Source of the DNA: Ginglymostoma cirratum
Taxonomy: Eukaryota
Length of the DNA: 64,000 nucleotides
Assembly (NCBI GenBank): GCA_024137785.1
Contig: JAHRHZ010000062.1
Coordinates: 40,685,405 to 40,749,404, forward strand
Direction: 5' to 3'
The notes under the pieces were generated by a model, which worked only from the letters and a program-made list of their open reading frames with translations, searched no databases and was not told where the DNA came from. The position numbers were made by a program, and so were the translations under genes. Shown in pieces: positions 6,061 to 63,400 of this stretch; the first letter of the stretch is position 1, and each line of letters starts with the position of its first letter.

Positions 6061-6231
6061 CTCACCTGCCACTGTTCTGCTGCAGACTTTCCCACAAGTA
6101 GCTGTTCCCAGTCTACTTTGGCCAAATCCAGTTTTTATTTTAATAAAATCTGCCTCCCTCTAGCCGAAACACATTTTTTGCCAGCCATCGCTTTCATTTT
6201 ACCGTAACAAAGATTAAGTCCTACTATAAAA

Positions 6232-6440
6232 ATGAGATAACAAGGTGTAGAGCTGAATGAACACAGCAGGTCAAGCAGCATCAGAGGAGCAGGAAAGCTG
6301 ACGCGCCTGCTGAATTTCTGAAGAAGGTCTAGGCCCGAAACGCCAGCTTTCCTGCTCCTCTGATGGTGCTTGACCTGCTGTGTTCATCCAGCTCTGCACC
6401 TTGTTATCTCAGATTCTCCAGCATCTGCAGTTCCTACTTT
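6232..6440. mobile_element. Palindromic non-autonomous repeat (probably Penelope-derived) with hammerhead-like centre
   Basis: About 70-bp inverted arms at 6233-6303 and 6341-6411; centre CTGAAGA-aggtctaggccc-GAAAC at 6318-6341. Confidence 0.75.
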
Positions 6441-7121
6441 CTCTTAAGGCCTACTATATTGATGTTGTCAAAGTGCTTTCAAAGTGCAGTCAAGTTTTGT
6501 TTTCCCAGAATTAGGTCCGACAGTGTGCTATCCTTTGATGGACTTCTAAATATTGTGGTGAATAGCACTCTAGAATGCATTTTATTACTATTCACCTCTT
6601 GACCCCTCAAAGCCTCTTTACAAGGGTAATTGAGGAGTGTGATGGATCCACGTGTATGGATCGGGCTGTAGGAAGAGTGAAAACTGCAATATAAAGGGTT
6701 GCTCTGCACTGCAACCACTGGGTGGAGCTCACAGTCCAGTTTGGAGCTGGTCATGAAGGTTTAAAGCATGCGAAACAACCGTTTAGCCTATCAAACCTCA
6801 ATTGTTTTCTTCCTCAAACTGTGTGCACCTTTGTTTCCTTCAGAAAATATACTACTGGATGAAGTCAGTAAATCTGGTGTTTTGTTTAATTGGGCATGCT
6901 TGTGTGGTCAGTATTAGCAGTTGTCTAATCATGGTTTCATCATGTCCAAGCCCCATCATCCCAGCCAAGGGCTTCCTGCAGTAGACACTAGACAGTGACC
7001 AGAAGTAGGAACCCAACTCGGGAACGTGAAAGACAACACAACTCCCATGAAGTCATGGCTGTGATAAACTGACTGAACACACTTTTAGTGTATGGTATGA
7101 GATAATTAGAAAATCAGATAA

Positions 7122-7230
7122 TAGAGTCAACGCAGTTCTAAGGAAGGGTCACCGGACCTGAAACATTGACTCTGATTTGTCTTCACAGATGCTGCCAGAC
7201 CTGCTAAGCTTTTCCAGCAATTTGTTGTTT
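7122..7230 (+). mobile_element. Half copy of the same palindromic repeat class
   Basis: agttCTAAGGA-agggtc-accg-gacct-GAAACattgact followed by gatgctgccagacctgctaagcttttccagca, shared with the 54431 and 62955 copies. Confidence 0.65.
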
Positions 7231-9020
7231 CATCTATTTATTGTTCCCTTTGTGCCTGTGGATTTCATTGGAGGGTGCACATACTGTTAAACTTGTAGCC
7301 CATGAGGTAGCAGGTTATGCACCCCCCAAACATCTTTGTTAGGGAGGAGTTGTGTCTGATGACAATGACACATTTTTGCATTAAAAATGGCAATTGTTGC
7401 TTCACAAAACATCAAATTTGAATCTGAGGCATTTAACTGGTGGCTTTACTGGGGTGCATTGATTATAGTTCTGGATTCATTAAGATTCTGAAATGAATCA
7501 AGTGTTGGGCGTAGGTTTTTTGAATGAGTACTACTGACATAGAGATTCTTATCAAAAGTTCAAGGACCAAAGTCTGCATACCCTGTGTGATTCTCCATTC
7601 TAAAACCTAATGATGGAGAATCATGCAGGGCAAAATGCATTCAGTGCCTAAAACTGCATTGCACTTCAGTACTGAGATGTCAAGTGTAGCCTAGTAGTTT
7701 ATATCAGAATGCAATATAATATTCATAATGAGAATATTATAGATGTCAGTCTCCTGGTGAGGGTTAATAACAGGTAGGAATGCTACATCTGGTCACTCTC
7801 CAGTGATCGGTAATCAGGTTTGACTATGATGTATTTATTCCGTTGATGCTCACTGTCCAGACTGACAAGAAGAGTAGAGAATCAGGGTGTTCCTCTTGAG
7901 CCAGAATACTGTGGGACAGGCCAAGAGGAAGAAGGAAACTGGAGAGATGACAATAAACAATTTTCAGTCCTTTACTTTTCTTGGGGGCAGATTTGCTGAT
8001 CATGCTCCCAGCATGTTCAGTAATCCTGGTTTAATGCATTCCACCTCCATCATTGCTCAGAGGATCAATTTATAAAGATTAAAATTCCACAGTATTTGAG
8101 CTGGCTACCCACTGTTGCAACCTGCTATTCTTTATTTCCAAGCCTGGACATGAGCATCAGCCTTCAAAGCGAAATTGCAACTGTACCTATTCTCATCTGA
8201 TTACCATTCCCTGAACAGTGGTCAGCACTATCTGGTTCTGATTCTTTGAGAGTCAATAAGTGTTCCTGCCACCGGTAAAACTGAGCTAAACTAACTCGGT
8301 AAAGAGCAGAGATTAACCCTGAGGGCCTACTAATCCGTATGAATCAGCATCCCACCGTGTCTCCACCAGAAGCGTGCGTAAGGGTTAGAAAAATTGGCAA
8401 CTGTGGGTGCAAGTCAGCAATTCCATGAAGTAGGTTGAGCCTGAATGTGATGTCGATGGGGAGAGGGAGCTTAAGCTGCTGAGTTGCATTGTGGTAATAT
8501 AACACGTGGGATGAGGGTGGAAGCATCCAGACAGTACCAGTATTGCCCATCTACTACTATCAAAATGATTGCAACATTGCCTCTTCCACTCGTTCTTTAA
8601 TTATGAGTGAGGTGAGTAATTGACTAGTAACACAGCAATTAACACAACAAAAATAAATCAATCTTTTTGAAGTGGGATTGACCAGCCCTTGTCTGCTAAA
8701 GAAATTTGAATCACAAACATCCTATTAATGTCTTGTCCATGTCTATAGTACTGGAATTACTCTGCATGCCTAAAAACTCCTAAAATGGGGAGTGGAAAAG
8801 GAAACGATATCTGCTTTATGTTGGCCAAGAGGTATCCCTTTAATTCCTTTATTATTGCTATTTTTGACATTGAGGCTGTTTGAATTGTTGAAAATATTAA
8901 AATTGGGTTTTATTGTCAATGTAGCTCTTTGCCAGAGCAATAATCAGATTGCAGACCTTCAAAGCCCAGGCATGATGTATTTATTCTTTTCTTCCCTCGG
9001 TTTTTAATCCAATGATAGAA

Positions 9021-9117
9021 CAGCATGGTGGCTCAGTGGTCAGCACTGCAGCCTCACCACACTAGGGACCTGGCTTCGATCCCATCCTCGGGCGACTGTG
9101 TGGAGTTCGCACTTTCT
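9021..9117 (+). mobile_element. 3'-truncated HE1/V-SINE
   Basis: tRNA-derived head with A box (tggctcagtgg) and B-box-like cttcgatcc; matches the 5' part of the copy at 53900. Confidence 0.8.
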
Positions 9118-13579: not shown

Positions 13580-14490
13580 CATAGACATAGAGTATTTCAG
13601 CATTGTAAAAGGCCCTTTGGTCCATCATGTCCACACTGTCATCAAACATCTATCTATTCTAATCCCATTTTTTAGCATTTAGTCTGCAGCCTTGTATGCC
13701 ATGCCATTTCAGGTGCTCATCTAAATATGTCTTAAATGTATTGATGGTTCCTGCCTCTACCACCCTTACAGGTAGTGAGTTCCAGATACAAAATACCCTC
13801 TGAGTGAGTTTTTTTCTTCAAAACCCCTCTAAAAATCCTGATCCTTACCTTAAAATTGTGCCTCCTGGTAATTGGCCCCTCTACTAAAGAGAAAAGTGTT
13901 TTACTATTAACCTAGCTGTACCTCTCACAACTTGGTGTACCTCAACGAGGTCCTTCCTCAGCTTTCTCTGCTCTAAGGAAAAGCTCTGCCTATCCACTCT
14001 TTCTTTATAGTTGAATCACTACAGTCCAGGCAACAATCTGGTGAATCTCCTCTTCATCCTCTCTAACGTAATCACATCCTCCCTGTAGTGTGGTGACCAG
14101 AACTGCATACAGCACTCCAGCTGTGACCCAACTAACGTTATATATAGTTCCATCATAACCTTCTTCCTATCATATACCATGCTTTGACTAATAATAACTA
14201 GTATCCCATATGCCTTCTCAACCACCTTATCTACCTATCCTGCCGCCTTCAAGGATCAACAGAAAGACACACAAAACCCCTCTGATCCTCTATACTTCCT
14301 AGGGTCCAAACATTCAATGTGTACTCTTTTCCTTTGTTTGTCCTTCCAAAATGTATTGCCTTAGACTTTTCAGGACTAAATTCCATTTGCTACTGGTCAA
14401 CCCAACTGACCAGCCTGTTTACATTGTAGTCTAAGGTGTTCCTCCTTGCTATTTATCACACCACCAGTTTTCATGTCATCTGCAATCTGA
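13580..14490 (-). mobile_element. Decayed CR1 LINE 3' part
   Basis: ORF 14019-14225 (LECCMQFWSPHY...RRFTRLLPGL) is the CR1 ORF2 C-terminal motif; decayed FADD-region rc (tgtcatctgcaa) near 14475. Confidence 0.85.
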
Positions 14491-15523: not shown

Positions 15524-16319
15524 ATTTCTGGGCATATCAAAATGCGTGGCCATTTCATTTATGTTGTTGATGTGGTTTAATGCCGTGTTGTATTTTTGAC
15601 GCTGTCTGATGATGAGCCACTGTAAACTGTCATTTTGACGCAGATCTTTTGATAGTCTCTGAACAATTTTGTTTTGTTTTATAAAATGACTACAACGACT
15701 AGTTCATAAGCACAATACTGCAGATGCTGGAGACTTCAAATAAAAATGGGAAATACTGGAGAAATGCAGCAGATCTTATTACATTCACGTTTTAAACTTC
15801 TAAGTTGTTGGTCTGAAATCATTGCTGGACCCACATTAGATCTGGGCCACATAAATGAGCATGTACGCATTGCATTTCTAGCAATGATGTAGCCATTTCA
15901 ACAATTTTCATGAAATTCTGAAACGTTCTTCTTCAGGCTGGATTCCTTCTTCTACCATTTTCACACTAGTCTTCCCCTAGTACCAAATTCCCTTGATGCA
16001 GCAGAGTTATTCAATGACTCAGTAACTATTGCAACTTTTAGCTTGAAAGCAAAGTCACATGGTATTATTTTTGCTGGAAGTTGAACATCTATTCATCGTA
16101 CACCATCTGTGCTTTGCTCTGTGTTGATGTGTATTAAACTCCCATGCATCTTCTCTATACTACAGTGCATATTGCTTGCTTGATCCTATACAGCAATTTA
16201 TAGGATAAGTAGGACATGATTTCTGGGGTAAGTAATTAAGGTTGACTATAATATGAGAATGGCATTTTGCAACTGAATATCACTTTTGTTGCCGGTTGTC
16301 TTATACACTGGATACAATA
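15524..16319 (-). mobile_element. Tc1/mariner-superfamily (Tc2/pogo-type) DNA transposon relic
   Basis: Minus-strand DFAFKLKVAIVTESLNNSAASREFG (Brinker-type HTH) at about 15920-16075; IIRQRQKYNTALNHINNINEMATHFDMPRN (decayed NMDETP..FDMP) at about 15524-15620; TIR-like TATTGTATCCAGTGTATAAGACAACC at 16294-16319. Confidence 0.7.
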
Positions 16320-18580: not shown

Positions 18581-19129
18581 TTAAAATATAGGATAGTTCA
18601 ATTTTGAAAAAGTTTTCATAATTATGAAGGGGATTGATATAATTGTTGCTGCTAAAAAAACAGGAGTTACAAATTAAACCTTTGAAGTAAGGGATTTGTT
18701 AGATGGAAACTTTCATTCCAAAGGTAATCAACATATTGAGAAGCTACTGACTAAAGTCATTGAAATGAGCAACCCAAAGGGATTTAAGAGAGAATTGTAC
18801 ATGTTTCCAGGTGAGAGAGTTTCATAGTATGGAGGAAAGCAGAGGTGGGGGTTCATCTGTAAAAAAGCAATGGGTCTTTTGATTCTAACCATTCTGATGG
18901 ATAACTTGTTTTAATATTCTGTAAGCACTTAGATACTGTCCTACTGAAACAACCTATTTGAACACACCTCTGGGATGGTGGAACTTGAACCTAGACTTTC
19001 TGGTTTAGATATAGGAACACTACCACGATGCCACAACAGGCCAGCTATCCCTCTGATATTGTCTTGGGGAATGGCCTTATTCCATGCTTCCTATCCCCCA
19101 CATTATGCACAACATAATTTTACTAGTGG

Positions 19130-19318
19130 GAGATACAGATGCTGGAGTCAGAGACAACACAGTATGGAGCTGGTGGAACACAGCAGGCCAGGCAGCATCA
19201 GGGGAGCAGGAAAGTTGATGTTTTGGGTCAGGACTTCTGAAGAAGGGTCCCGAACTGAAACGTCAACTTTCCTGCTCCTCAATGCTGCCTGGCCTGCTGT
19301 GTTCCACCTGCTCCATAA
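19130..19318. mobile_element. Palindromic repeat with hammerhead-like centre
   Basis: Inverted arms from about 19164 to 19317; centre ttCTGAAGA-agggtcccgaact-GAAACGTCaa at 19235-19266. Confidence 0.75.
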
Positions 19319-24200: not shown

Positions 24201-24379
24201 ATCTAACCACAGATCACCAGACTTCTTCAGGGACCTGGGAGGAGAAAGGTGGTACATCAGACAAATCATTGGCACATTTAATTAGAATCAGTTCATTAAA
24301 ATATTAGGGACATGTAAATAGGATCATTTGCTTTTGACTATGTGCTTATGAATAGTTAGCAAATGTGGATCAATATCCA

Positions 24380-24472
24380 GAGATAGTAGGAACTGCAGAT
24401 GCTAGAGAATCTGAGATAACAAGGTCCTCTGATGCTGCTTGGCTTGCTGTGTTCATCCAGCTCTACACCTTG
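24380..24472. mobile_element. Internally deleted copy of the 6232-type palindromic repeat
   Basis: gtaggaactgcagatgctagagaatctgagataacaagg joined directly to tcctctgatgctgcttggcttgctgtgttcatccagctctacaccttg; the centre is missing. Confidence 0.75.
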
Positions 24473-26233
24473 AATCAATATCCAATTTGTTTTGGCATGC
24501 TTCCCTCAGTTAACATAAGATGCACATTGGAATGGATAAGCTGGATACTACTGGCTGAAAATATTATTTATAAAATTCACGAGATTTGGAGGTAGCATCA
24601 TAATTCAGTAATGTTTATGTGTTGCAAGTTTCTAAAGAAACCAAGTAACTAATGTCAAATTGAGAATAGTAAGTGACTAGTCAGAAAAACAAAGTATTGC
24701 TTTTAAAGGGGTTGGCAATATAAAACTAATCTAATAGTGGTCAAGGTAGTAGCAAAATCAATGGATATTCTATACATGGATTTTTAGAAAGTTCCAAAGA
24801 GATTCCAGATAAAATTGAGATTTATAGAACAAGAACGGAAATTGCTGGAAAAGCTCAGCAGGCATTTTTACATCTGTCATAATTATCTAGTTTCATGGTT
24901 GGAGGTTAAATGTGATATAATGGGAAACCTGGTGAGCAAAGTGATAAACATCCCTAATGTAAGGGCAAATGAAACAAGCCTAGGTTAAAGGTAACCCATG
25001 TTAATCTTACAAAAGCAGATTTAACGGTATGGGAGATTAAACTATCAGGGTCTTCTCTCAGCTTAATGGAGCCAGAAGGTCTATGTTTGTTTCAAATAAG
25101 AGTATTAAATTGCTTATGTGCTCTCCAGGTGAAAATAAAGTTGAAAGCCAGTGTAAACACAATAGCTTATTAACTGGGCCAGCATCTTCCAGGAGACAGG
25201 GGGAGGGGGGGCATGATAAAACTCCTTTAGCGATAAATTATTCACACGGGTTACAGAATTGTACAGTTGTGATGAAGGTAAAGCTAATTAGTTTTGTGTT
25301 TCTTTCTGACTCGTCTCGAATATACCACATTGTCATGGAAATAAGCTCAGGGAATTAGATAGTCATGTTGTTTTTCTCACTAGAGGAAGCTGTGGTTTTG
25401 GCTTAGTGTGAACAAGAGCTGACTGACTTGGTAGAATTTAAAGCAGACGACTGTTAGGCAGGCCTATACTTGACGATCCTAACTTTGTTCCTCATTGCAT
25501 GGAATGCAGATGGGGGCTCAAGCTTAGTTTGGAATGTATGACGGGCAAAGAAGCTGGAAGTTTTGCCTAGTTTAAAGATAGAGTAAGTGATCTACATTGG
25601 TCCTCACAGAGCCTTGTGGTAGATATCAACCAGCAAAGTTAGAAAGACTGAGAGAGGACAATCAGTTATCTGGCAGCCAGCAAAGCACCTAAGGTCTTTC
25701 AAGAAATGTTGGAGGGATGCTTAGCTAAATGTTAATAGATTGATCCCCATAAATATTGTACCTTGGAGAAAACTGGAATACCAAGGAGAATGAAAGTAAG
25801 TTTCAAAGACATACCTTTGAGTTGATCCCTAAAGAAGGAAATGAACCTTCAAGATTTTATAAGAAAATAGAACTTTTGAGGGAAGTAACAAATAAAACTG
25901 AGTTTACAGTATAGGATTTTATGAGCTTTAGTGTTAAGTTCTTAGTGTTGTTTCTTTTCTTTTTGCATACATTTTTATTTAAACACATGAAATATTTCGG
26001 TGTTGTTAATTGCTGGATGTTTGGATTTCTCTTAAACATTAATGGTTTCCTGCAGGATTGTGACAATCTACATGAATGATTAATCAACTTCCTTAAGGCT
26101 GTGTCTGACTTCAACTAATTACCCCAGTAGATCATAAGCACACGCTATTTTGAAACAGAATAATTTTCGTATCAGTTTTTAACCCTATTATAGGTAAGGA
26201 ATTGAACATCTTTACTCATGACAACTCTGAGGT

Positions 26234-32167: not shown

Positions 32168-32481
32168 AAATCCCTACAGTGTGGAAGCAGGCCATTTGGC
32201 CCATTGACTCTACATCGACCCTTTTGAAGAACATCCCACCCAGACATAACCCCCTGTCCGATCCCTGTAACTCTGCATTTCCCATTGCTAATCCACCTAT
32301 ACTGTACATCAAGGGCAATTTAGCATGGCTAATCCACCTCCCCTGCACTTCTTTGGACTGGGAAGAAGCCCATGCAGACGCAGGGAGAATGTGCAGACTC
32401 CACACAGACAGTTGCCTGAGAGCAGAATTGAATCTGGCACTGTGAGCCAGCAGTGCTAACCACGAAGCCACTGTGCTGCCC
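32168..32481 (-). mobile_element. HE1/V-SINE, near full length
   Basis: Reverse-complement match to the 53900-54200 copy. Confidence 0.9.
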
Positions 32482-33520: not shown

Positions 33521-33835
33521 TAGAATCTAGAATCCCTACAGTGTGGAAACAGGCCCTTCGGCCCAACAAGTCCACACCAAACCTTGGAGCATCCCACCTA
33601 CACCCATCCCCTTGTAACCCACCTAATCTACATACCCCTGAACACTATGGGCAATTTAGTATGGCCAATCCACCTAACCTGCACATCTTTGGATTGTGGG
33701 AGGAAACCGGAGCAAACCCGCACAGACACAGGGAGAATGTGCAAACTCCACACAGACAGTCACCCGAGGCTGGAATTGAACCTGGGTCCCTGGCACTGGG
33801 AAGGCAGTAGTGCTAACCACTGAGCCACCATGCCA
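33521..33835 (-). mobile_element. HE1/V-SINE, full length
   Basis: Reverse-complement match to 53900-54200, including the CR1-like tail. Confidence 0.92.
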
Positions 33836-34529
33836 CTCTTTAGCAAAAGAGTGAACTGAAAACTTAAACATTTTCAACTTGAAGGGCAATTTGTGTTAAT
33901 TTGCCAACAAACACAGATCTCACCCATGCATTCATGTAACTATGTGGGGTTTTGCTTTTCTGAGTGATTTGTACAAAATTTCTGATTATTTAAAATTGTG
34001 ATATTTGCTTTGGGTATATTTGTACAGTTTCTGTTTATACAGCTCCCCCTGTGCAATTGTACAAATTACCTTTTTATTGAAATGAATAAATCAAAAGTTT
34101 AAATATGCAATTGTCTGAAGTCCCCAGTGTACTGGGATGTCTGAAATAACCATTAGCATTTCACTAAGATCTGACACCAGTTTTTAAGTTGCATATACGT
34201 TCAGCAATTTTTCAGGTCAAATTTATTTTGTCGTCCTTTATAATTAAAAATTGAGTGAAAAACAATTTATTCAAGTTCATAACAACCAATAGTTTAGTTC
34301 CTGTTGAGAGTGTTATCTACAGCACTGTTAGAACAGCCTGCCAATTAGTTAATGATTGTTTAAAAAATGTCTTCAAATTATTTGCTTTCATTGATAAAGC
34401 AGGAGACATTGACATATACTGAAGTTATAAAATATGTCAAACCATTTTAAACAAAGGGCAGATCCTGCATACCTGTCAAGGAGCAATGCTGATGGAGTGT
34501 GACAGGTTGTAATCCTGTCTCCAAACCAT

Positions 34530-35883: not shown

Positions 35884-38062
35884 CATAGAACATAGAACAT
35901 AGAACAATACAGCGCAGAACAGGCCCTTCGGCCCTCGATGTTGCGCCGACCTGTGAACTAATCTAAGCCCACCCCCTACACTTTCCCATCATCATCCATA
36001 TGCTTATCCAAGGATTGTTTAAATGCCCCTAATGTGGCTGAGTTAACTACATTGGCAGGCAGAGCATTCCACGCCCTTACCACTCTCTGAGTAAAGAACC
36101 TGCCTCTGACATCTGTCTTAAATCTATCACCCCTCAATTTGCAGCTATGCCCCCTCGTACTAGCCGACGTCATCAACCTAGGAAAAAGACTCTCACTGTC
36201 CACCCAATCTAATCCTCTGATCATTTTGTATGTCTCTATTAAATCCCCTCTTAGCCTTCTTCTCTCCAATGAGAACAGACCCAAGTCCCTCAGCCTTTCC
36301 TCATAAGACCTTCGCTCCAGACCAGGCCACATCCTGGTAAATCTCCTCTGCACCTTTTCCAATGCTTCCACATCCTTCCTGTAATGGGGCGACCAGAACT
36401 GTACGCAATATTCCAAGTGAGGCCGCACTAGCGTTTTGTACAGTTGCAGCATGACGTCACGGCTCCGGAACTCAATCACTCTACCAATGAAACCTAACAC
36501 ACCGTGTGCCTTCTTAACTATCAACCTGGGTGGCAACTTTCAGGGATCTATGTACCTGGACACCAAGATCCCTCTGCACATCCACACTACCAAGAATCTT
36601 TCCATTGACCCAGTATTCTGCCTTCCTGTTATTCTTCCCAAAGTGAATCACCTCACATTTATCTGCATTGAACTCCATTTGCCACCTTTCAGCCCAATTC
36701 TGCAGTTTATTCAAGTCTCCCTGCAACCTGCAACATTCTTCCACACTGTCCACCACTCCACCGACTTTAGTGTCATCTGCAAACTTATTAACCCATCCAC
36801 CTATGTCTGCGTCCAAGTCATTTATAAAAATGACAAACAGCAGTGGTCCCAAAACAGATCCTTGTGGCACACCACTAGTAACCAGACTCCAGGCTGAATA
36901 TTCTCCATCAACCACCACTCTTTGGCTTCTTTCAGAAAGCCAGTTTCTAATCCAAACTGCTAAATCTCCCTCAATCCCATGCCTCCGCATTTTCTCCAAT
37001 AGCCTACTATGTGGAACCTTATCAAAGGCTTTACTGAAGTCCATGTACACCACGTCAACTGCCCTACCCTCATCCACATGCTTGGTCACCTTCTCAAAAA
37101 ACTCAATGAGGTTTGTGAGACACGACCTGCCCTTGACGAATCCATGTTGACGATCTCCAATCAAATTGTTGCTTGCTAGATGATTATAAATCCTATCTCT
37201 TATAATCCTTTCCAAAACTTTTCCTACAACAGATGTAAGGCTCACTGGTCTGTAATTACCTGGGTCATCTCTACTGCCCTTCTTGAACAAGGGCACAACA
37301 TTTGCAATCCTCCAGTCATCTGGTACTAAACCTGTAGCCAATGACGACTCAAAGATCAAGGCCAAAGGCTCCGCCATCTCCTCCCTAGCTTCCCAGAGAA
37401 TCCTCAGAAAAATCCCATCCGGCCCAGGGGATTATCTACCTTCACACCTTCTAGGATTGATAACACTGCCTCCTTACTGACCTCAATCCTTTCAAGTCTA
37501 ATAGCCCGTATCTCGGTCTTCTCCTCTACAATATTCTCCTTTTCCCGAGTGAAAACAGATGAGAAATATTTGTTTAGCACCTCTCCGATCTCCACAGGGT
37601 CCACACACAACTTCCCACTTCTGTCTTTGACTGGCCCTATTCTTACCCTCGTCATCCTTTTATTCCCCACATACCTATAGAAAGCCTTAGGGTTCTCCTT
37701 AATTCTACCTGCTAATAACTGCTCATGTCCCCTCCTTGCTCCTCTTACCTCTCTCTTTAAATCCTTCCTAGCTAATCTGTAACTCTCCATCACCTCATTT
37801 GAACCATCTTGTCTCAATGTCACATAAGCCTCCCTCTTCCGCTTAACAAGAGATACAATTTCTTTTGTAAACCAAGGTTCCCTTACCTTATCACTTCCTC
37901 CCTGCCTGACAGGGACATACCTATCAAGGACACGCAATATCTGTTCCTTAAACCAGCCCCACATTTCGATTGTCCCCATCCCCTGCATTTTGCTACCCCA
38001 TTCTATCCCTCCTAAGTCTTGCCTAATTGCATTATAATTGCCCTTCCCCCATCTATAACTCC
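35884..38062 (-). mobile_element. Young 5'-truncated CR1 LINE (ORF2 RT, two frameshifts)
   Basis: Three consecutive ORFs (37404-37988, 36514-37377, 35976-36536) with GVPQGSVLGP and KFADDTK; (TTCTATG)n tail at 35884-35905. Confidence 0.96.
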
Positions 38063-38511
38063 AGTCACTGTTCTGCAGAACAATTCAAGACTGTTTTCTC
38101 TAAACAGAATATTGATTATTATTGTATGTAGAATCTTGATATGTGCATTCCTACAATACAAGAGCGACAATATCCCAGAAGTATTTTATTGTCTAGAGTG
38201 CTTTGTATAATTCTGAGGTCATGAAATACACTATATATAAATACAAGTCCTCCTGCCTTTTATGTTGTTCCTATCATTATGAATTTCTAAGACAGACTTA
38301 CAATTGCCATCCTGTTTACACCCAACAGGTAATAGTTACCTACTTTAGACATTATTTACAAGAATACTGCTGGCATTTTTCTTTCTAAACAATTTAAAAA
38401 TGTAAAGCAGCACTAATTTCTCAATGTGCAATGATTCTTCAAAGTGAGATTCCACTCACATTGCTAAGCAGCTTGTTTCTTTTTAAAACTCATGGTCTCT
38501 TTCACTGTCAG

Positions 38512-39665: not shown

Positions 39666-40560
39666 GTGAGTCACACTGTATGTGGAGTTTACTGTACTAC
39701 AATGTTGCTAATCCACCATAACTCCTGTATCAAACAATCTTTTTCCGGTAGTATGTGTCTCTCTAACTTCTCACTTCCTGTCCTATGTTTAGTATCTCTG
39801 TCTAATCATTGCTCTCATGCTTTCTTTTCTTTTCTCTCTCTCTCTCTATCTCTTTCTCCTCACATTTCCACCCGTCTTATGTGCCTTTTTGATCTCCAAG
39901 GCCGGTAAACTGTTTGAAGAAACTTTGCCAGAAAACATCTCACAAAATCATGCAATGAAACCACAATGAAATTCCTGACTTACTTCTGCTCATTCCCCCT
40001 GTTTCCGTATTATTTTCTGTCCCTCATTGTCTCTTTCTGATCAGCTGCTGTTTGTCTTTTTTTATGTTGCCTTCCGTTTCTCTCTTGCTGTCCATGTATT
40101 TGTGTCAGTCTCTCGTGCACCATTTTTCTTGCTGTCTGTCTTTCTCGAACGCTGACCGTGCAAATTCCCTATGAATGCCAGTAATTTTCTATGTAGACAG
40201 ACCTAATGCCAATTTTACCTGTAGTTGTTTGCACTGTATACTTGCCCCATTGCAATTTACCCAATGGAACTTGAAATAATGCCAAAGAACATGCAGTCTC
40301 ATTAACTTGTTTTGGTTGGCTGAGCTTCATGTGGCTGAGAACAGATTTGATCCCTAGTAGGTGGAAATCTCTGGATCTCTGCTGACTTAATAGTAGGGGC
40401 ATTGCAGGTGGCCTCAGTGCCTTTTGGATTAGGGAACAGAGAAGTTACTCTAGTCTGGAGATGTGGAGGCCAATCAGATCATCCCTTGCGCTGATCAAGA
40501 AAAACAAACGTTTGCTTGTCTGGCTTTTCAGTGAAGACAGGTCTTTTAAATTGAATAACT

Positions 40561-40827
40561 ACATTGTGGAGGCAGGCCATTCAGCCCATCAAGCCCACGT
40601 TCCTTCTAAAGAGCAGTCCACTCAGACCCACCCTATCCCTGTACCCTGAATGGCCAATCCACCTAACCTGCACATCTTTGGACTGTGGGAGGAAACTGGA
40701 GCACCCAGAGGAAACATGCGCAGACAAGGGGAGAATGTGCAAACTACACACAAATCTGAGACTGGAATTGATCTCAGGTCCCTGATGCTATGAGGCAACA
40801 GTGCTAACCATTGAGCCATCATGCCGC
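40561..40827 (-). mobile_element. HE1/V-SINE with internal deletion
   Basis: Reverse-complement match to the 53900 copy. Confidence 0.88.
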
Positions 40828-41154
40828 TGTGATGACACTTGTCAATGAGGCTTGGGGATAACTGTTGAAGGGCAGTTGATACCTTTGAACTCATACCCTA
40901 GGAAGAGCCAAAGTCATGAAGGGAAAATTGTTATTCCCTTTTCTTTCTCACTGTTGAGAGAGGCTGATCCCCAGAACACCAATGTTAAGATTTGCAGGGC
41001 TGGTGGGGGGAATCCAAAGGAATTCATGCTAATGGTTGTGTGAGCTCAGTTTGGGGGCTTAAATGATGTGTGCAGTATATTTGAAATTCTGAGGGTGTTT
41101 TCGGCTTTGATCCTCTTAAGTTGATCATTTCTCTTTCTTTTTCTCTGGTGACAG

Positions 41155-41283: not shown

Positions 41284-41769
41284 GCAAGTAGATCACAGAT
41301 GCCCAGTCAGCTGCTTGATATCTTCCTGGCAGGACTTATAGAAACTGTTGAGGTTGGTAGGATACAAGCAGAAAGAGTGAGGGAGGTGCTGCAAGAAGTA
41401 TGGAGGAACTTCATGGTTATGAATAGCAGGATGGGGTATCTGGGAATTGAGGCTATGGGGTGTGGCTGCAAATGGTTTTGAGGGAAGTATGTGCCTGTGG
41501 ACGGAAAGAGATGCTCAAGTATTCATGGTGGAATATAAGCGATGTCCAGCAAAGGAAAAGTGTTTGGAATTTGGTCTGGATGGGTGCTTGGGAATAATCA
41601 GTGGTTGGTGAAGTGGTGCTTAGAGTGGGGACAGGTTGAGTTGGCATGAGCAGTGTCCAGGGAGGAGAACGACCCAGAGTGAGGGAAGGGGGAAGGGTAG
41701 CTGATGGGATTGAGACAGGTACAGTAGAGAGAGGAGATGTTCCCAAGAGATCGATAGAGGAAGATGTTT

Positions 41770-43036
41770 TGTGGAGGGGAGATCATGCCTTACTAACTTA
41801 ATAGAGTTCTTTGAGGAAGTGACCAAGTTGATAGCTGAAGGAAGGGCTGTAGATGTCATCTACATGGACTTTAGTAAGGCGTTTGATAAGGTTCCCCATC
41901 GTAAACTAACGGAGAAAGCGAAGTCACATGGTGTGCAGGGTGTTCTAGCTAGGTGGATAAAGAACTGGTTGAGCAACAGGAGACAGAGAGTAGTAGTTGA
42001 AGGGAGTTTCTCGAAATGGAGAAAGGTGACCAGTGGTGTTCCACAGGGATCAGTGCTGGGGCCACTGTTGTTTGTGATATACATAAATGATCTGGAAGAG
42101 GGCATAAGTGGTCTGATCAGTAAGTTTGCAGATGACACGAAGATTGGGGGAGTAGCAGAAAGCATAGGGGATTGTCAAAGAATACAGGAGAATATAGGTA
42201 GACTGGAGAGTTGGGCGGAGAAGTGGCAGATGGAGTTCAATCCGGGCAAGTGTGAGGTGATGCATTTTGGGAGGTCTAATTCTAGAGCGAACTATACTGT
42301 AAACGGAAGAGCCTTGGGAAAAGTTGATGAGCAGAGAGATCTGGGAGTTCAGGTCCATTGTACCCTGAAGGTGGCTGCACAGGTGGATAGAGTGGTCAAG
42401 AAGGCATATGGTATGCTTGCCTTCATCGGACGGGGTATTTAGTATAAGAGCTGGCAGGTCATGTTAAAATTGTACAAGACTTTGGTTCGGCCGCATTTAG
42501 AATACTGTGTACAGTTCTGGTCGCCACATTACCAAAAGGATGTGGAAGCTTTGGAGAGGGTACAGAGAAGGTTTACGAGGATGTTGCCTGGTATGGAAGG
42601 TGCTAGCTATGAAGACAGGTTGAGTAGGTTAGGATTGTTTTCATTAGAAAAAAGGAGATTGAGGGGGGACCTGATTGAGGTCTTCAAAATCATGAAAGGT
42701 GTAGACAGGGTTGATAGAGATAAGCTTTTTCCCAGGGTGAGGGATTCGATAACGAGGGGTCACGCGTTCAAGATGAGAGGAGAAAAGTTTAAGGGGGATA
42801 CACGCGGAAAGTACTTCACACAGAGGGTGGTAGGTGCCTGGAACGCGTTGCCAGCAGAGGTAGTAGAGGCAGGCATGGTAGATTCATTTAAGGTGCGTCT
42901 GGGGAGCAGAGGGATACAGATCCTTAGGAATTAGGCGATAGGTTTAGACAGTGGATTTGGATCGGCACAGGCTTGGAGGGCCGAAGGGCCAGTTCCTGGG
43001 CTGTAAGTTTTCTTTGTTCTTTGTTCTTTGTTCTAT
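41770..43036 (+). mobile_element. Young 5'-truncated CR1 LINE
   Basis: ORFs 41771-42442 and 42461-42934 are one frame broken by a single TAG; KFADDTK; (TTCTTTG)n tail at about 43010-43034. Confidence 0.96.
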
Positions 43037-44389: not shown

Positions 44390-47300
44390 GTAAGTCATTT
44401 GCATAGAATTACTTGGAATATGTAGGTACACTGCACGTCCCTGCAAGTCTTCTCAACTACATCTTATAGTAGAGAATTCCACATACAAACAACTCTCTGA
44501 GTAATAAACAAAAAAAAATTTTCCTTAAATATCTGGTAGGTTTATTAGTGGCAATTTATTTTTGCTATTTAGTTCTAGTGTCCCATGTCAGCCTTATTAA
44601 ATCCTTCCATAATCTTAAAGGCCTCTATCAGGTCACTTCCACAGTCACAATTTTTCTAGAGAAAGGAGCTCACCTTGTTCAGCCTTTCCTTTTAAAGTAT
44701 TACCTCTCAGTCTTAGTGTAACATTTGGATTTTTGTTTTCATCTAGTCCAGTAGCTTCATGTTTTCGTAATGTAAAAACAACTATTCACAGTACTGTAAA
44801 CTATGTTTTAATCAAGGTTTTTGTACAGGTTTAACATAACTTCTGTATTTTCCAATTGTAACCCTCTAAAAGTGACCCCTAGATTTTGTTTTTTTTAAAT
44901 GGCTTAAACCACTTTATTACTCACAATATCATATAGACCAGATGAAGTTCACCATCTATCTGGTTTCAAATGGTTGCACTAAATAAAAAGACTGCATAGT
45001 AAAGGGCAGTTAGAAAGGGCTCCCTGTAAAGTACTTATCCTGAACTCTTTCTAAACCCTGCCCCAATGTCCTGGTCATTTGTGCCATTTAGACTTGTTGT
45101 CCATGTTGGAACAGCTAAATTGCAGCCCCTCTCATTTATCTGTAATAAAATATATTTGCTAATTATACACCAATTCTGTAAGTTTATTAACATCTTTCAG
45201 GTTTGAAAATCATGGGACATTTAGAAATAATGGTTAGAAAGCCCCTTCACTGTGTATTTACACTGCTGCTGTGAGTGTACCCAAAGCAGGCCTCTCATAC
45301 ATCATATATCATAAGCTTTGAGTAAGTTTTGAAGCTGTGATAAATGGCAACTTAAAATAAAACTGTTAGCCACTTCCAGAATGAATTCTTTCAAGACTTG
45401 TGTCTGCTCTTTCATTCTAAGCCCTGAGTCTTTTTCCCACATCAGGGACTCATTAATGATGCTTTAACTTGAACTAGATATTCTGACAATGCAGTGTTTT
45501 TTTCACTCGGAGGACAACAATGGACAGCGAGGAAACTGAGCATCCTCTGGTGTGAAATTGTTCAAGTTCAGACTTGCCCTCCTTAAAAGTGGTGTGGAAT
45601 GTGGCATGAAGGACAAAGAATCAGACTGTGGCAACAGGGAGATATTACCATCTTTCTGCCACCTCAGAAATTAAATTCTGGGAAGGAATGTCTGTGGTTG
45701 AGCGTCCTGACCCACTACCAACTGACACCCTTCAGTGGTCAATCACCAACCACTTAGAGGTGCAATCCCATGTTACTTCAGCTCCAGGCAAGAGAAAAAG
45801 AAGCTGGCCTACCAGTCCAGTCAGATAGTGCAGGAAGGATGCCAATTTGTAGGCTAGTGGGTAGATCCTTCACTCTACACTCAATTTTGCAATGTCAAGG
45901 ATCTTGTCCCAGGGCCTGGTGTGCCCTCTGAGGAACATCCCTTTCCCTCGCTTCAGACACCCCTCCACCTCCTCTCCCCACAGCTTCCCAAACCTGGAAC
46001 CTGCCCCAAGCAACACTTGCTTTTCCTTCTGCTGATCCCTACCGAGAGATTCAGGGGGAGCTGTCGTTAGCAGCCGTGGTCTCTGTCGCAGATTCCTGGA
46101 CATCCCTGCCTCTGATTGGTCAGTAGCTCCATGCAGGTGGGGCTTCCTAGGCCAAATTCAAAATTCGGGTAGAAAGCCCCCACAGCCAATCAAATGGCTG
46201 ATTGACACTTGACCCTATGGGCTTTCTCACAAAAGTATACCACGGACTGGGAAATCCCAGCCTCCATAAAAGCATCATTATTTATTCTGGCACTCTATTC
46301 CTATTTATAGCCAACTGTAACTTGCAAGTTTCAGTTCACAACAAGTTTGGGTTATTCTATAGAAACTGTTTTTAATGTTAACTCAAATAGAAGAATTGGA
46401 AAGGGCACAAATTGTAACCATTAAAAGCAGGAATTTCACCACAAAAACACCCTATTATAAAATTGATGAGACCTGGATAAAAAGGCAAAGGGAAATATTA
46501 ATTTAACAGTTGGGGATCTTTCCTTCATTTGGCTGCACAGGAGTTACATCTCACTTCTCTGCTGCTTAGCAGAGACGAATTCCACAGATTAGACAGATAA
46601 ACTTGGCATTTAATGATCAGATTAGAACACTATGCCCCGTTAATGTTAAGGGTAAGGGATTACAAGTAGCCCTTTACTGTGCAGTCTTTTTCTTTAGTGC
46701 AACCATTTGAAACTAGGTAGATGGTGAACTTCATCTGGTCTATGTGATATTGTGAAGAATAAAGTGGTTAATAAAAATTAAAACAGGAGGAATTAGCATC
46801 GAGCGCTTCTGAGAAACCAGACCTGCCAGAGGACGCCATTGCTCTTTAGTGAAAGTATTACTCTCAGCAGCGCTGGTGCCCTTCACTGATCTCCGGATCT
46901 GGCCCCAGACAGTCTCACACTTAGTCTCTGTTATTTCGGATCTCCTGATGTGTCTGGCTGTGGTGAGATTTCTTTCCCTCCCCATTGATTGGCCAGCTTC
47001 CTCTCCTGACTTCCCTGTAAATTAAGCCGGTGTTAAGAGAGTGGATTTCCTATGTTTACCTCACAAAGACGGGAGCCTGTCAACCGTGTGAGATTTGCTC
47101 AGACATGTATTTGTTGTGTATTAATTAATTTCAAGGGTATGTACATGAAACTACAAAATGTGACATGAACTTTTTAGAAGCTATATGCTGGTCTTTGCGC
47201 TTTTTGACACAAAAGTCTGACTTTACAATCTGATGAGTTTATAACTTTCACTGTTGAATAAAGTTCCTTGTGCAAACATTTGATTTGTTTTTTCCTCCAT

Positions 47301-49512: not shown

Positions 49513-49660
49513 GCAAGTGCCATCACCTTTCTCTGCCACCTCTCACCCAAGGGCCAGCACCCACACTCATACTGCTACTGCAAACACATCTCACCAAGGC
49601 TGATGGACAAAACCCTCCGCGTTGCATACATCATGCGGATGTATGCGGATGCATACATCA

Positions 49661-50145
49661 TTCACACGGATAATCCCTGGAATGGTAGGCCTAACGTACG
49701 ATGAACGGCTGAGGATCCTGGGATTGTATTCATTAGAGTTTAGAAGGTTGAGGGGAGATCTAATAGAAACTTACAAGATAATGCATGGCTTAGAAAGGGT
49801 GGAAGCTGGGAAGTTGTTTCCGTTAGGTGGGGATACTAGGACCCGTGGGCACAGCCTTAGAATTAGAGGGGGTCAATTTAGAACGGAAATGAGGAGACAT
49901 TTCTTCAGCCAGAGAGTGGTGGGCCTGTGGAATTCATTGCCACGGAGCGCAGTGGAGGCCGGGACGTTGAATGTCTTCAAGGCAGAGATTGATAAATTCT
50001 TGATCTCGCAAGGAATCAAGGGCTATGGGGAGAGTGCGGGTAAGTGGAGTTGAAATGCCCATCAGCCATAATTAAATGGCAGAGTGGACTCGATGGGCTG
50101 AATGGCCTTACTTCCACTCCTATGTCTTATGGTCTTATGGTCTTA
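49661..50145 (+). mobile_element. Young short CR1 3' fragment
   Basis: Open ORF2 C-terminus (FTRIIPGM...FFSQRVVGLWNSLP...KGYGESAGKWS*); (GGTCTTAT)n tail. Confidence 0.95.
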
Positions 50146-53899: not shown

Positions 53900-54200
53900 G
53901 GGCAGCACGGTGGCTCAGTGGTTAGTACTGCTGCCTCACAGTGCCAGGGACCTGGGTTCGATTCCAGCCTCGGGCATCTGTCTGTGTAAAGTTTGCACAT
54001 TCTCCCTGTGTCTGTGTGGGTTTCCTCCAGGTGCTCTGGTTTCCTCCCACAGTCCAAAGATGTGCAGGTTAGGTGGATTGGCTATGCTAAATTGCCTGTA
54101 GTGTTCAGGGAGGTGTGGGTCTGGGTGGGATGCTCTGAGGTTCGGTGTGGACTTGTTGGGCCGAAGGACCTGTTTCCACACTGTAGGGATTCTATTCTAG
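53900..54200 (+). mobile_element. HE1/V-SINE, full length
   Basis: A box tggctcagtgg, B box ggttcgattcc, V-domain core (gggtttcctccaggtgctctggtttcctcccacagtccaaaga), CR1-like 3' tail. Confidence 0.93.
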
Positions 54201-54254: not shown

Positions 54255-55300
54255 TATAGAAATAGAACAACTTCAAAAACACCTGCTGTACTCTTAATTT
54301 AGCACATTCAGCATTTGAAAATATTCTAAGAAGCTTCATAAAGAATTATTATGTAAAATATGATGCAGAGTCACATACTGAGACAGGAAGTCAGACAAAG
54401 CTTGGTCAAGTGGGTACATTTTAAGGAGTGAAAACAGAAATTGCTGGAAAAGCTCAGTAGGTCTGGCAGCATCAGTGGAGAGAAATCAGAGTTAATGTTT
54501 CGGGTCACGTGACCGAAACGTTAACTCTGATTTCGCTCTAAAGATGCTTCAAGACCCGCTGAGCTTTTCCAGCAATTCCTGTTTTTGTTTCTGATTTACA
54601 GCATCTGCCGTTCTTTTGGTTTTTATTTAGGTTTTAAGAAGTATCTTTATAGGGGAAAGTGAGGTAGAGAGGTGGCGAGGCGTATAGAGAGGGAATTCCA
54701 GAGCTTAGGGCAGACCACCAATAGCACAGCATTTAAAATTGGGCTACTTGTGAGACCAGGAGGACAGGCTACAGCTATCTTGATGGGTTGCAGGGCTGGG
54801 AAAATTATGGAGATAGGGAGATTCAAAAACATAATTAACACTGAGGCATTGCTTCATGATGAGCTAACGCAGGCCAGCAAGCACAGAGTCAGGAGCAGTT
54901 GAACAGGATTTGGTGTGAGCATAGACACAGGCAGCAGATTGTTGGCTGAGCTGTAGTTTATGGAGAGTAGAATGTAGGAGACTGGCTGGGAGTGCGTGGG
55001 GATAGTCAAATCTAGAGGTAGTAGGGATGTGGCTGATGGTTTCAGCAGCACAGAAGCAGACACAGGAGTTAGACACTGTTACAGAGGTGGAAATAGTTGG
55101 CCATAGTGATGGGGCAGGCATCTAGATGGAAGTTTATCTTGGAGTCAAATACAAAACTAAGTTTGCAAACAGTTCGGTTTGGCATCAGACTGTTGTCACT
55201 GAGAGGGATGGTTAGAGAAGGGAGTTTGTGTTAGCAAACAAAGTCGATTGTCTCAGTCTTCCCAGTACTTAATGGGAGGAAATATCAGCTGAAGCAGTAA
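54255..55300 (-). mobile_element. Decayed L2-like LINE interrupted by a palindromic element
   Basis: Minus-strand PKLWNSL and SAANNLL...KSCS motifs typical of the L2 ORF2 3' end. Confidence 0.6.
54431..54625. mobile_element. Palindromic repeat with the CTGANGA box deleted
   Basis: About 75-bp inverted arms centred on ttcgggtcacgtgaccgaaac (54499-54519). Confidence 0.8.
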
Positions 55301-56131
55301 TGAAAGCTGACTGGAGAGGGATGGATTTAAAAATGGGATATAAAGATGGGACTTACATTGGTAAAGAACAACATGATCACGGACTTAAACTTACAGGTAG
55401 ATTCTGCAGAGATTCTACACTAACTCAGACAAGCCCGTACACAGACTAACAGAAACCCAACCAGCCCTTACACACTTGCAATACAAACCTCAACTCGAAT
55501 CCACACAGACTCTGAGATGGACCTGGCACAACTTTCAATCTAGACCCAGCAGAGGGAAGTGCTGGAAGATGCTATTTTTCCCACTGGTCTCATGTTTGCT
55601 CCACTAATCACCTAAATCTCTACATTATCTGACACACCCCCTCTATGATGGACAGCTGAATGCTTCAATAAATGCATTACTTGTTTTGGTTGACAGCAGT
55701 CTGATGGTGTAACAAGCCAATAATTGGAGGAGGCTGGATAAGGAATTGTTGCATTCCTAGGAATCCAGGACACACACAATCTATTCGGGTCATTTTATCC
55801 TGTAGGGACAGAATATGCTACATAGAATTAATTCAGTTCAGGAATAAATTAAATTTAAAATGAATGTTTTCACAGGAGAAGAGTTTAAGTGCCAAACAGT
55901 CAGATTTTGAAAGAGTTGAGCCTTTATGTTCCTAACTCTGAAGAATTCTTCTTTATGTGTGATACAACTTTCAGCTCTGAGTTTGTTCCAGCAATCAGAC
56001 CTGTTTCAGAATTGATCACAGGGGCTGCATTGTTGTTGGGATTTAGTTTAATTTGTATGAAATGTGCATGACTGCAAATCACTCAGTGCTAGCCTAGAAA
56101 AATCCCCAAAACACTCAGCACATCTGGCACA

Positions 56132-56280
56132 TGTCCCAGTGCCGGCTCTCACACACACGTCCCAGCGCCGGCTCTCACACACACGTCCCAGCGCCGGCTC
56201 ACACACACACATTCCAGCTCCAACTTTTGCACACTGCCTGCGCTGGCTCTCACACATGGCCCAGTACCGGCTCTCGCGCA
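56132..56280. repeat. Minisatellite, about 26-bp unit GTCCCAGCGCCGGCTCTCACACACAC
   Basis: Three near-identical units plus two to three degenerate ones. Confidence 0.85.
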
Positions 56281-62954: not shown

Positions 62955-63090
62955 TGATTCTGACGAAGAATCACCGGACTCTAAACGTTAACTCTGCTTA
63001 CTTCCCACACATGCTGCCAGACTTGCTGAGTTTCCCTAGTAATTTCTGTTTCTGTTTCTGATCTCCAGCATCCGCAGTATTTTTTTTTTG
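62955..63090 (+). mobile_element. Half copy of the palindromic repeat class with a decayed hammerhead-like core
   Basis: ttCTGACGA-agaatc-accg-gactc-TAAACGTTaactc followed by atgctgccagacttgctgag...ctccagcatccgcagt. Confidence 0.7.
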
Positions 63091-63400
63091 TTTTATTTTA
63101 TTTATTTCCTTAGTACCTGACAGATAAGAGACTTCCATTTCATTATCCCGAATTAGTTTTGAACCCTCTTCCCACAGACAAATGGCCTGGCTCTGCAGAT
63201 AGCTCTTTGTTGTTTTCTTACCAACATGAATTAATCCATACAGCTGGTGAAACAAGAATTATTAATGTACCAGCGTAGGTATGCCACTACTGAAGGGGCT
63301 CACCACATTAGATGCAAGTTTGCTGTATTTAGGACCTGAGTCCCATAATTTATGACATTTGTAACAGTAATACACCACTAACTGGTTTGTTTTCTTATAG

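Follow-up and report, generated by a model that had tools for sequence, protein, structure and literature searches.

The hairpin at positions 6233-6444 is most probably a two-armed pseudo-LTR insertion of an autonomous Penelope-like element, in which the front of a capped, uncut RNA was likely copied twice, once per nick. It lies in a 64-kb stretch of the Ginglymostoma cirratum genome, analysed over its full 64,000 nucleotides and called the window below. Relatives of the hairpin have a GIY-YIG/reverse transcriptase (RT) open reading frame (ORF) upstream and the start of an ORF downstream. We also observe two fixed ends, a tail on one arm, and a target duplication. The first-pass annotation had proposed a distinct, non-autonomous hairpin retroelement family. 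Instead, the repeat is the pseudo-LTR of autonomous RT and GIY-YIG elements.

The insertion consists of two unequal arms placed head to head. Its inverted repeat (6233-6303 and 6341-6411) has arms of 71 nt each that are 94% complementary, and the RNA fold of the 6233-6444 hairpin has a z-score of -17 relative to 200 shuffles. Counting element positions from ribozyme C3 = 0, the inverted arm (6233-6303, minus strand) covers +24 to +94, is tail-less, and has an intact GTC triplet. A 10-nt filler (6304-6313) separates it from the direct arm (6314-6411, plus strand), which belongs to an older family-A subfamily and continues into the Penelope “tail” of 33-34 nt (6412-6444, plus strand), present on this arm only. 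The target-site duplications (plus strand) are 15 bp long at 6214-6228, with one mismatch to the right copy at 6444-6458; AAAA lies between the left copy and the arm. The element first annotated at 6232-6440 runs four bases further, to 6444.

The direct arm opens with a degenerate minimal type I hammerhead (6314-6348, plus strand), with a predicted cut after 6344. Its boxes sit between the 71-nt arms and overlap them. The core letters read ATTT, CTGAAGA, a bulged A, GGT-CTAG-GCCC, GAAA, CGCC, and AGCT. On the plus strand, these form stem I (6314-6317 with 6345-6348), the CUGAAGA box (6318-6324), stem II with one G lost (6326-6336), and the GAAA box (6337-6340). The CGCC that replaces CGTC at the cleavage triplet, recognized at first pass, is a U16.1>C change at 6343. 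Position 6314 is the homologue of the putative transcription start. Further along the plus strand (6362-6425), a long-range helix is predicted between GAUGCUG (6362-6368, one mismatch here) and CAGCAUC (6419-6425).

The ribozyme of this copy is predicted to be inactive because of U16.1>C, the lost stem II G, and pairing of the cut-site flank. In the modelled fold of the plus-strand transcript, this flank base-pairs with the long arm. By such pairing, the hairpin would hinder the ribozyme fold instead of serving it. Over 132 nt, the direct arm and tail differ from their own consensus by one deletion and six substitutions. Two variants are common to both arms, so both likely derive from one source, and since the GTC of the inverted arm is GCC in the direct arm, U16.1>C likely arose afterwards. 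We also considered CGCC as the mark of a dead-but-spreading subfamily. It is present in 3/54 copies, relative to 0-1 at seven other T sites, and the inverted arm has GTC, so a later mutation is likely and the idea was rejected.

The repeat is continuous with a protein-coding element. Among the 30 genomic sequences that match the direct arm best, 12 share collinear upstream sequence at 100 nt. This shared sequence codes for the C-terminal portion of a protein with RT and GIY-YIG. A protein search of the genome returned 124 scored matches, and open frames of 700-850 aa were found in 10 of 20 loci picked for long frames. The 850-aa frame scores 29.9 bits for Pfam RVT_1 (cut-off 29.6) and 23.7 for GIY-YIG (cut-off 22.6), and stops ~250 nt before the same ribozyme. 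It carries a DKG motif (KPADKGG), YIDD, and a CX2-5CxxC linker motif (CNRRKCYTC). By its motifs, it may be of Neptune type, with a linker motif that is common to Nematis. For the B, C, and D ribozymes, a GIY-YIG match lies 260-620 nt upstream (one locus per family). Relatives of the hairpin continue into an RT, CxxC, and GIY-YIG ORF. Downstream, the tail runs on to an ATG 38-39 nt further in 29 of 30 loci picked with that flank. This ATG is ~170 nt after the ribozyme start, and the ORF begins past the tail. With an ORF upstream and an ORF start downstream, the repeat is the 3' end of the element and, in tandems, its 5' leader: a pseudo-LTR. Within the 64-kb window, tblastn with the element protein gave no match, so no RT/GIY-YIG ORF lies there. 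Elsewhere in the genome, a very young subfamily has near-identical open frames of up to 850 aa, often in head-to-head pairs (e.g., L064:2313-6925), which suggests recent activity.

The hammerhead is a conserved feature of the whole family. We built seven subfamily consensuses (from 45, 10, 62, 12, 10, 30, and 30 copies; one four-copy group was left out). Ten of the 11 core positions (CUGANGA, GAAA, and NUH) are invariant among them, relative to 41 of 107 downstream columns. The sole variable core position is G12 in family D, a CpG site at which single D copies keep G. For families C and D, the search queries lay downstream of the ribozyme, so copies were gathered without regard to its letters. 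Families A, B/D, and C differ by ~40% downstream of the core. In 11 real copies, stem II is 95% paired and stem I 85% paired, while slid controls drop to 24-44%. Each stem has one compensatory change, and each of these is a single evolutionary event. In stem II, one pair is GC in seven copies and AU in four, separating A/B from C/D; in stem I, UA changes to CG in family C. Stem II also has a bulged base and G10.1-C11.1. Stem I is 4 bp long in families B, C, and D and in the youngest A subfamily. The older family-A ribozyme may be weak, because its consensus has just two consecutive stem I pairs. A palindromic ACGU replaces stem III in all seven consensuses. The annotation was right to recognize a Penelope-type minimal type I hammerhead with several subfamilies, and the features it looked for, a core better conserved than its flanks and covariation in stem II, are both present, the latter as one change.

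Motifs of this kind are abundant in the 4.36-Gb host genome. A strict core pattern matches 92,931 times, and its reversed control 0 times. The strict minimal-hammerhead descriptor detects 15 intact motifs in 360,359 non-N bases of untargeted stretches (0-1 in each of 10 shuffles), but 0 in the window, in keeping with the earlier remark that no copy here is perfect. A profile search of 100 stretches, sampled at round coordinates of large contigs and holding 520,971 non-N bases, recovered 132 arms. Extrapolated to the genome, this gives some 1.1 million arms, a rough figure because about half of the sampled bases are N. Outside the core, all seven consensuses keep GAUGCUG and CAGCAUC with hardly any variation. 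The two motifs can pair, and the point at which tail-less arms end falls inside the resulting loop. No double change was seen in this helix among the seven consensuses. The helix is a candidate protein-binding or RT-start structure.

Arms of the family end at two preferred points. Among 86 listed 3' ends (one arm was entered twice), 40 lie at +89..+98 and 34 at +125..+140. The tail is on exactly one arm in 11 of 12 head-to-head pairs. Target duplications of variable length (8-15 bp) flank 12 of 49 unpaired arms, relative to 0.7 in shuffled pairings. The family forms partial tandem pseudo-LTRs, inverted truncated copies, and an optional tail.

These ends suggest how a two-armed insertion might be made. 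A TATA-like box ~30 nt upstream would drive transcription from the first base of ribozyme stem I, and the element protein would nick both target strands. Reverse transcription would then be primed inside the RNA at about +93 and +127, comparable to the two internal start sites of reverse transcription seen in vitro for the green anole element (PMC11167929). Each cDNA would extend toward the RNA 5' end, reaching the presumed cap in one case (6314) and +24 in the other (6303). The two short cDNAs would be joined head to head, making the hairpin a by-product. Where an element forms a full tandem, its two ribozyme copies would dimerise through the ACGU palindrome and cleave. The twin-nick step is borrowed, by analogy, from the in vitro result in a different clade.

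The same element could also produce an inverted arm by fold-back self-priming of one cDNA or of an antisense template. We regard this as the most credible of the alternatives, though still unlikely. At several junctions (5/12 pairs), the turn is at a short palindrome or there is an overlap of 1-4 nt, and self-priming has been proposed for rotifer Penelope palindromes (PMC3846280). However, fold-back predicts that the copy stops at the origin of the first strand, whereas in 11 of 12 pairs the two arms have different fixed end points. The 10-nt filler of 6233-6444 is no fold-back loop, and the anole protein is described as extending both strands (PMC11167929).

Arms also pile up at a common 5' end. 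In untargeted stretches with duplicates removed, 20 of 64 family-A arms start at -8..+2, a hazard 10.6 times that of neighbouring zones; the zone was picked after family A was seen. Starts at -8..+2 recur in 37 of 78 B/D arms, where mismatch to the upstream reference could inflate the count (contexts were checked by eye), and in 10 of 45 C arms from C-selected loci. An incidental C set had no pile-up in this zone (1/9, p = 0.43). For the young subfamilies, whole-genome pattern counts give 1,693 starts at -4 versus 25, 29, and 59 at +24, +28, and +32. Corrected for degeneracy, these become ~7,560 versus 360, 660, and 530.

Bases preceding the pile-up are consistent with a capped RNA end. G precedes the -4 start in 57 of the first 100 among the matches listed (hand-counted; 25% expected), and still in 28/59 after dropping starts that an inverted arm could template. 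A purine followed by G precedes 440 of the 1,693 starts (~16% expected). G lies directly before the start in 0/25 cases at +24 and 10/29 at +28. An extra 5' G has been put down to cap copying in L1/SVA work (PMC3287187). In none of 12 G-preceded loci does a lone G stand cleanly between duplication and element; in one, the G belongs to the target duplication. In each of the four families, the start is a pyrimidine-A with a TATA-like word 29-31 nt upstream, and the spacers differ. It is against the TATA and initiator consensus that we read the start site. The pile-up suggests copies of a capped, uncut RNA 5' end, and the ribozyme's first base likely marks the start of the element RNA. Both readings are drawn from sequence patterns; four contig sets of presumed RNA origin carry no information on starts, ends, splicing, or expression. 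At the cut site, by comparison, the young subfamilies have 29 starts, where two neighbouring positions predict 19.5 (p = 0.03 if base frequencies are as assumed), a weak excess with no peak; one cut-site pattern, confounded by a subfamily with an extra A, was discarded. Such weakness is in line with the anole element, for which uncut RNA was found to be the main substrate (PMC11167929).

Alternatively, the pile-up could reflect RT stalling, whether at an RNA structure or in a C-rich tract, or else processing of the RNA end. Family A does have a 22-nt C-rich tract directly upstream of the start, preceded by a splice-acceptor-like TTTCAG, and the D. virilis intron ends directly at helix I (PMC4209133). 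Against this, the pile-up recurs in B/D and C despite different upstream spacers, TATA-like spacing is kept across four families, and the G excess at the main start is absent at +24 and +28. We therefore consider a stall or processing improbable. Promoters differ among published elements: TATA and initiator motifs have been noted in a rotifer pseudo-LTR (PMC3846280), while the D. virilis Penelope promoter is TATA-less, with an intron before the ribozyme (PMC4209133, PMC2377424).

A capped, uncut template might also imply an LTR-like cycle, which we put forward as a speculative extension that is rather doubtful at present. The ribozyme would form the first 35 nt of the capped transcript. Reverse transcription would start ~100-130 nt inside and run to the cap, yielding a short DNA of the strong-stop type, and would then jump to an RNA 3' end. 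The jump would be guided by a 31-nt terminal redundancy, left when dimer cleavage cuts the downstream ribozyme, and would regenerate the pseudo-LTR with its upstream promoter. Failed jumps would then yield about a million stubs, and jumps onto broken RNAs would yield short direct tandems. Such tandems account for 20 of the 30 ORF-start-flank loci, and consist of a pseudo-LTR, 206-1,259 nt of 5' ORF, and a second pseudo-LTR. The second pseudo-LTR starts at -11..+5 in 16 of 20, consistent with jumping from the 5' end of the RNA onto another RNA end. Each short tandem has its own junction, and its two ribozymes are near enough to dimerise.

It is very unlikely that the hairpin is a self-propagating, non-autonomous, retrozyme-like retroelement with a ribozyme working in the hairpin loop. 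Hairpin stubs are common and have target duplications at their flanks, animal retrozymes are reported to be pseudo-LTR-derived (bioRxiv 10.64898/2026.07.22.740005), and two pseudo-LTRs are present in the short direct tandems. However, arms start and join at many points, and junctions vary between copies, which argues against a fixed hairpin element. This heterogeneity largely refutes the separate hairpin family of the first-pass annotation. Close head-to-head pairs hold just 24 of 87 family-A arms. Stubs are also without the TATA-like box, the cut-site flank is predicted to be paired by the long arm, and the window showed no tandem array of the unit.

A miniature DNA transposon or microRNA hairpin has a negligible probability: the repeat is long and inverted and draws Rfam microRNA matches, but its relatives continue into the RT/GIY-YIG ORF, its arm ends are unequal, its family's duplications vary from 8 to 15 bp, and all 11 Rfam matches of the window (E up to 10) are microRNA or snoRNA models far below the gathering cut-off. 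None of these 11 is a hammerhead model, and so the covariance search suggested earlier, run on the window, did not recover the motif. No tRNA gene and no solved-structure relative were found.

Copies elsewhere in the window show the same range of forms. All those cited at first pass (7138, 19130/19237, 24380, 54431, and 62960) are present. The description of the core as the loop of a ~70-bp inverted repeat holds for the 6232 and 19130 copies, but fails for the other four of the six. The copy at 7122-7232 (plus strand, core at 7136) is a family-B stub comprising a short inverted piece and a direct arm, with G5>A in the core. At 19125-19317 is a family-A' head-to-head stub with its tail on the left (inverted) arm, an 11-bp flanking repeat, and a core (19237) in which the stem II 3' strand is broken. 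The family-A stub at 24379-24472 joins an inverted tail piece to +42 to +89, with an 11-bp flanking repeat and no ribozyme letters. A family-B head-to-head stub (54429-54627) turns inside loop II, and CUGANGA is absent from both of its arms. Family D is represented by a solo arm with a tail and no inverted arm (62957-63094, plus strand), whose core (62960) has TAAA for GAAA (G12>T). Two more minus-strand pseudo-LTR fragments lie at 15717-15776 and 24822-24863.

The window also contains repeats of other kinds. Two broken LINE-type RT remnants in opposite orientations (35976-38084 and 41714-42934) have motifs that we take to be CR1-like, and further LINE-type pieces lie near 13999-14259, 48150, and 49604-50053. 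A dispersed short repeat, likely a tRNA-derived SINE and presumably similar to shark HE1, has copies at 9021-9102, 32169-32480, 33522-33837, 40554-40828, and 53900-54194. A 115-nt inverted repeat (44893-45007 versus 46669-46783, 89%) around 1.66 kb is possibly a DNA transposon remnant, and minisatellite-like 26-nt repeats occur at 56128-56278.

As a ribozyme, this find is ordinary. Its value lies in sample size, with about a million insertion ends in one genome. Judging from these ends, the 5' ribozyme was left uncut in most templates, and they likely started at the first ribozyme base. From this start-site reading, precise predictions follow for cap mapping and for assaying a young open-frame element in vitro. 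Our literature search, with subscription journals and Repbase outside its scope, found no paper that puts the transcript start at the ribozyme's first base, and the accessible text of PMC12602865 has no mention of ribozymes.

The hammerhead motif, host family, and insertion shape are already published (PMC4209133, PMC6155905, PMC6765202). The minimal hammerheads of metazoan Penelope-like pseudo-LTRs (Cervera and De la Pena 2014, PMC4209133) have the same CUGANGA and GAAA boxes, bulged base before stem II, G10.1-C11.1, palindromic 15.2-16.2, and short stem I. They likewise form several consensus families per genome, mostly as single motifs in truncated elements, with some opposite-strand pairs. 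Stem II is shorter here, at 4-5 bp, and the 92,931 strict cores exceed the ~4,000 of coelacanth and ~9,000 of Xenopus, although the patterns differ and the counts are only roughly comparable. The available text of that study does not place the motif at the transcript start, whereas here the putative start is the first base of stem I.

Non-coding, pseudo-LTR-derived repeats with type I hammerheads are also described as animal non-LTR retrozymes (bioRxiv 10.64898/2026.07.22.740005). Those are head-to-tail arrays of one unit, recognized as fixed-unit tandems with at least two complete ribozymes. In contrast, 6233-6444 is a head-to-head stub with a private junction and one degenerate core.

Parallels are also found among endonuclease-positive (EN+) Penelope-like elements of Neptune/Nematis type (Craig et al. 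2021, PMC8557442), two groups that the shared linker motif does not separate. These have the same order of RT, CX2-5CxxC linker, and GIY-YIG. They also have 5' truncation, partial tandems, an adjacent inverted truncated copy, and a one-sided 30-40 bp tail, as here; inverted truncated copies with an optional tail are published (PMC8557442, PMC2377424). Unlike in those elements, the ORF here starts after the tail, not inside the pseudo-LTR. Poseidon_Ac of the green anole (Frangieh et al. 2024, PMC11167929) belongs to another clade, and its ORF begins in ribozyme stem II rather than at an ATG ~170 nt past the ribozyme start. In both systems, two fixed 3' ends bracket the tail, and there are signs that uncut RNA is the main template.
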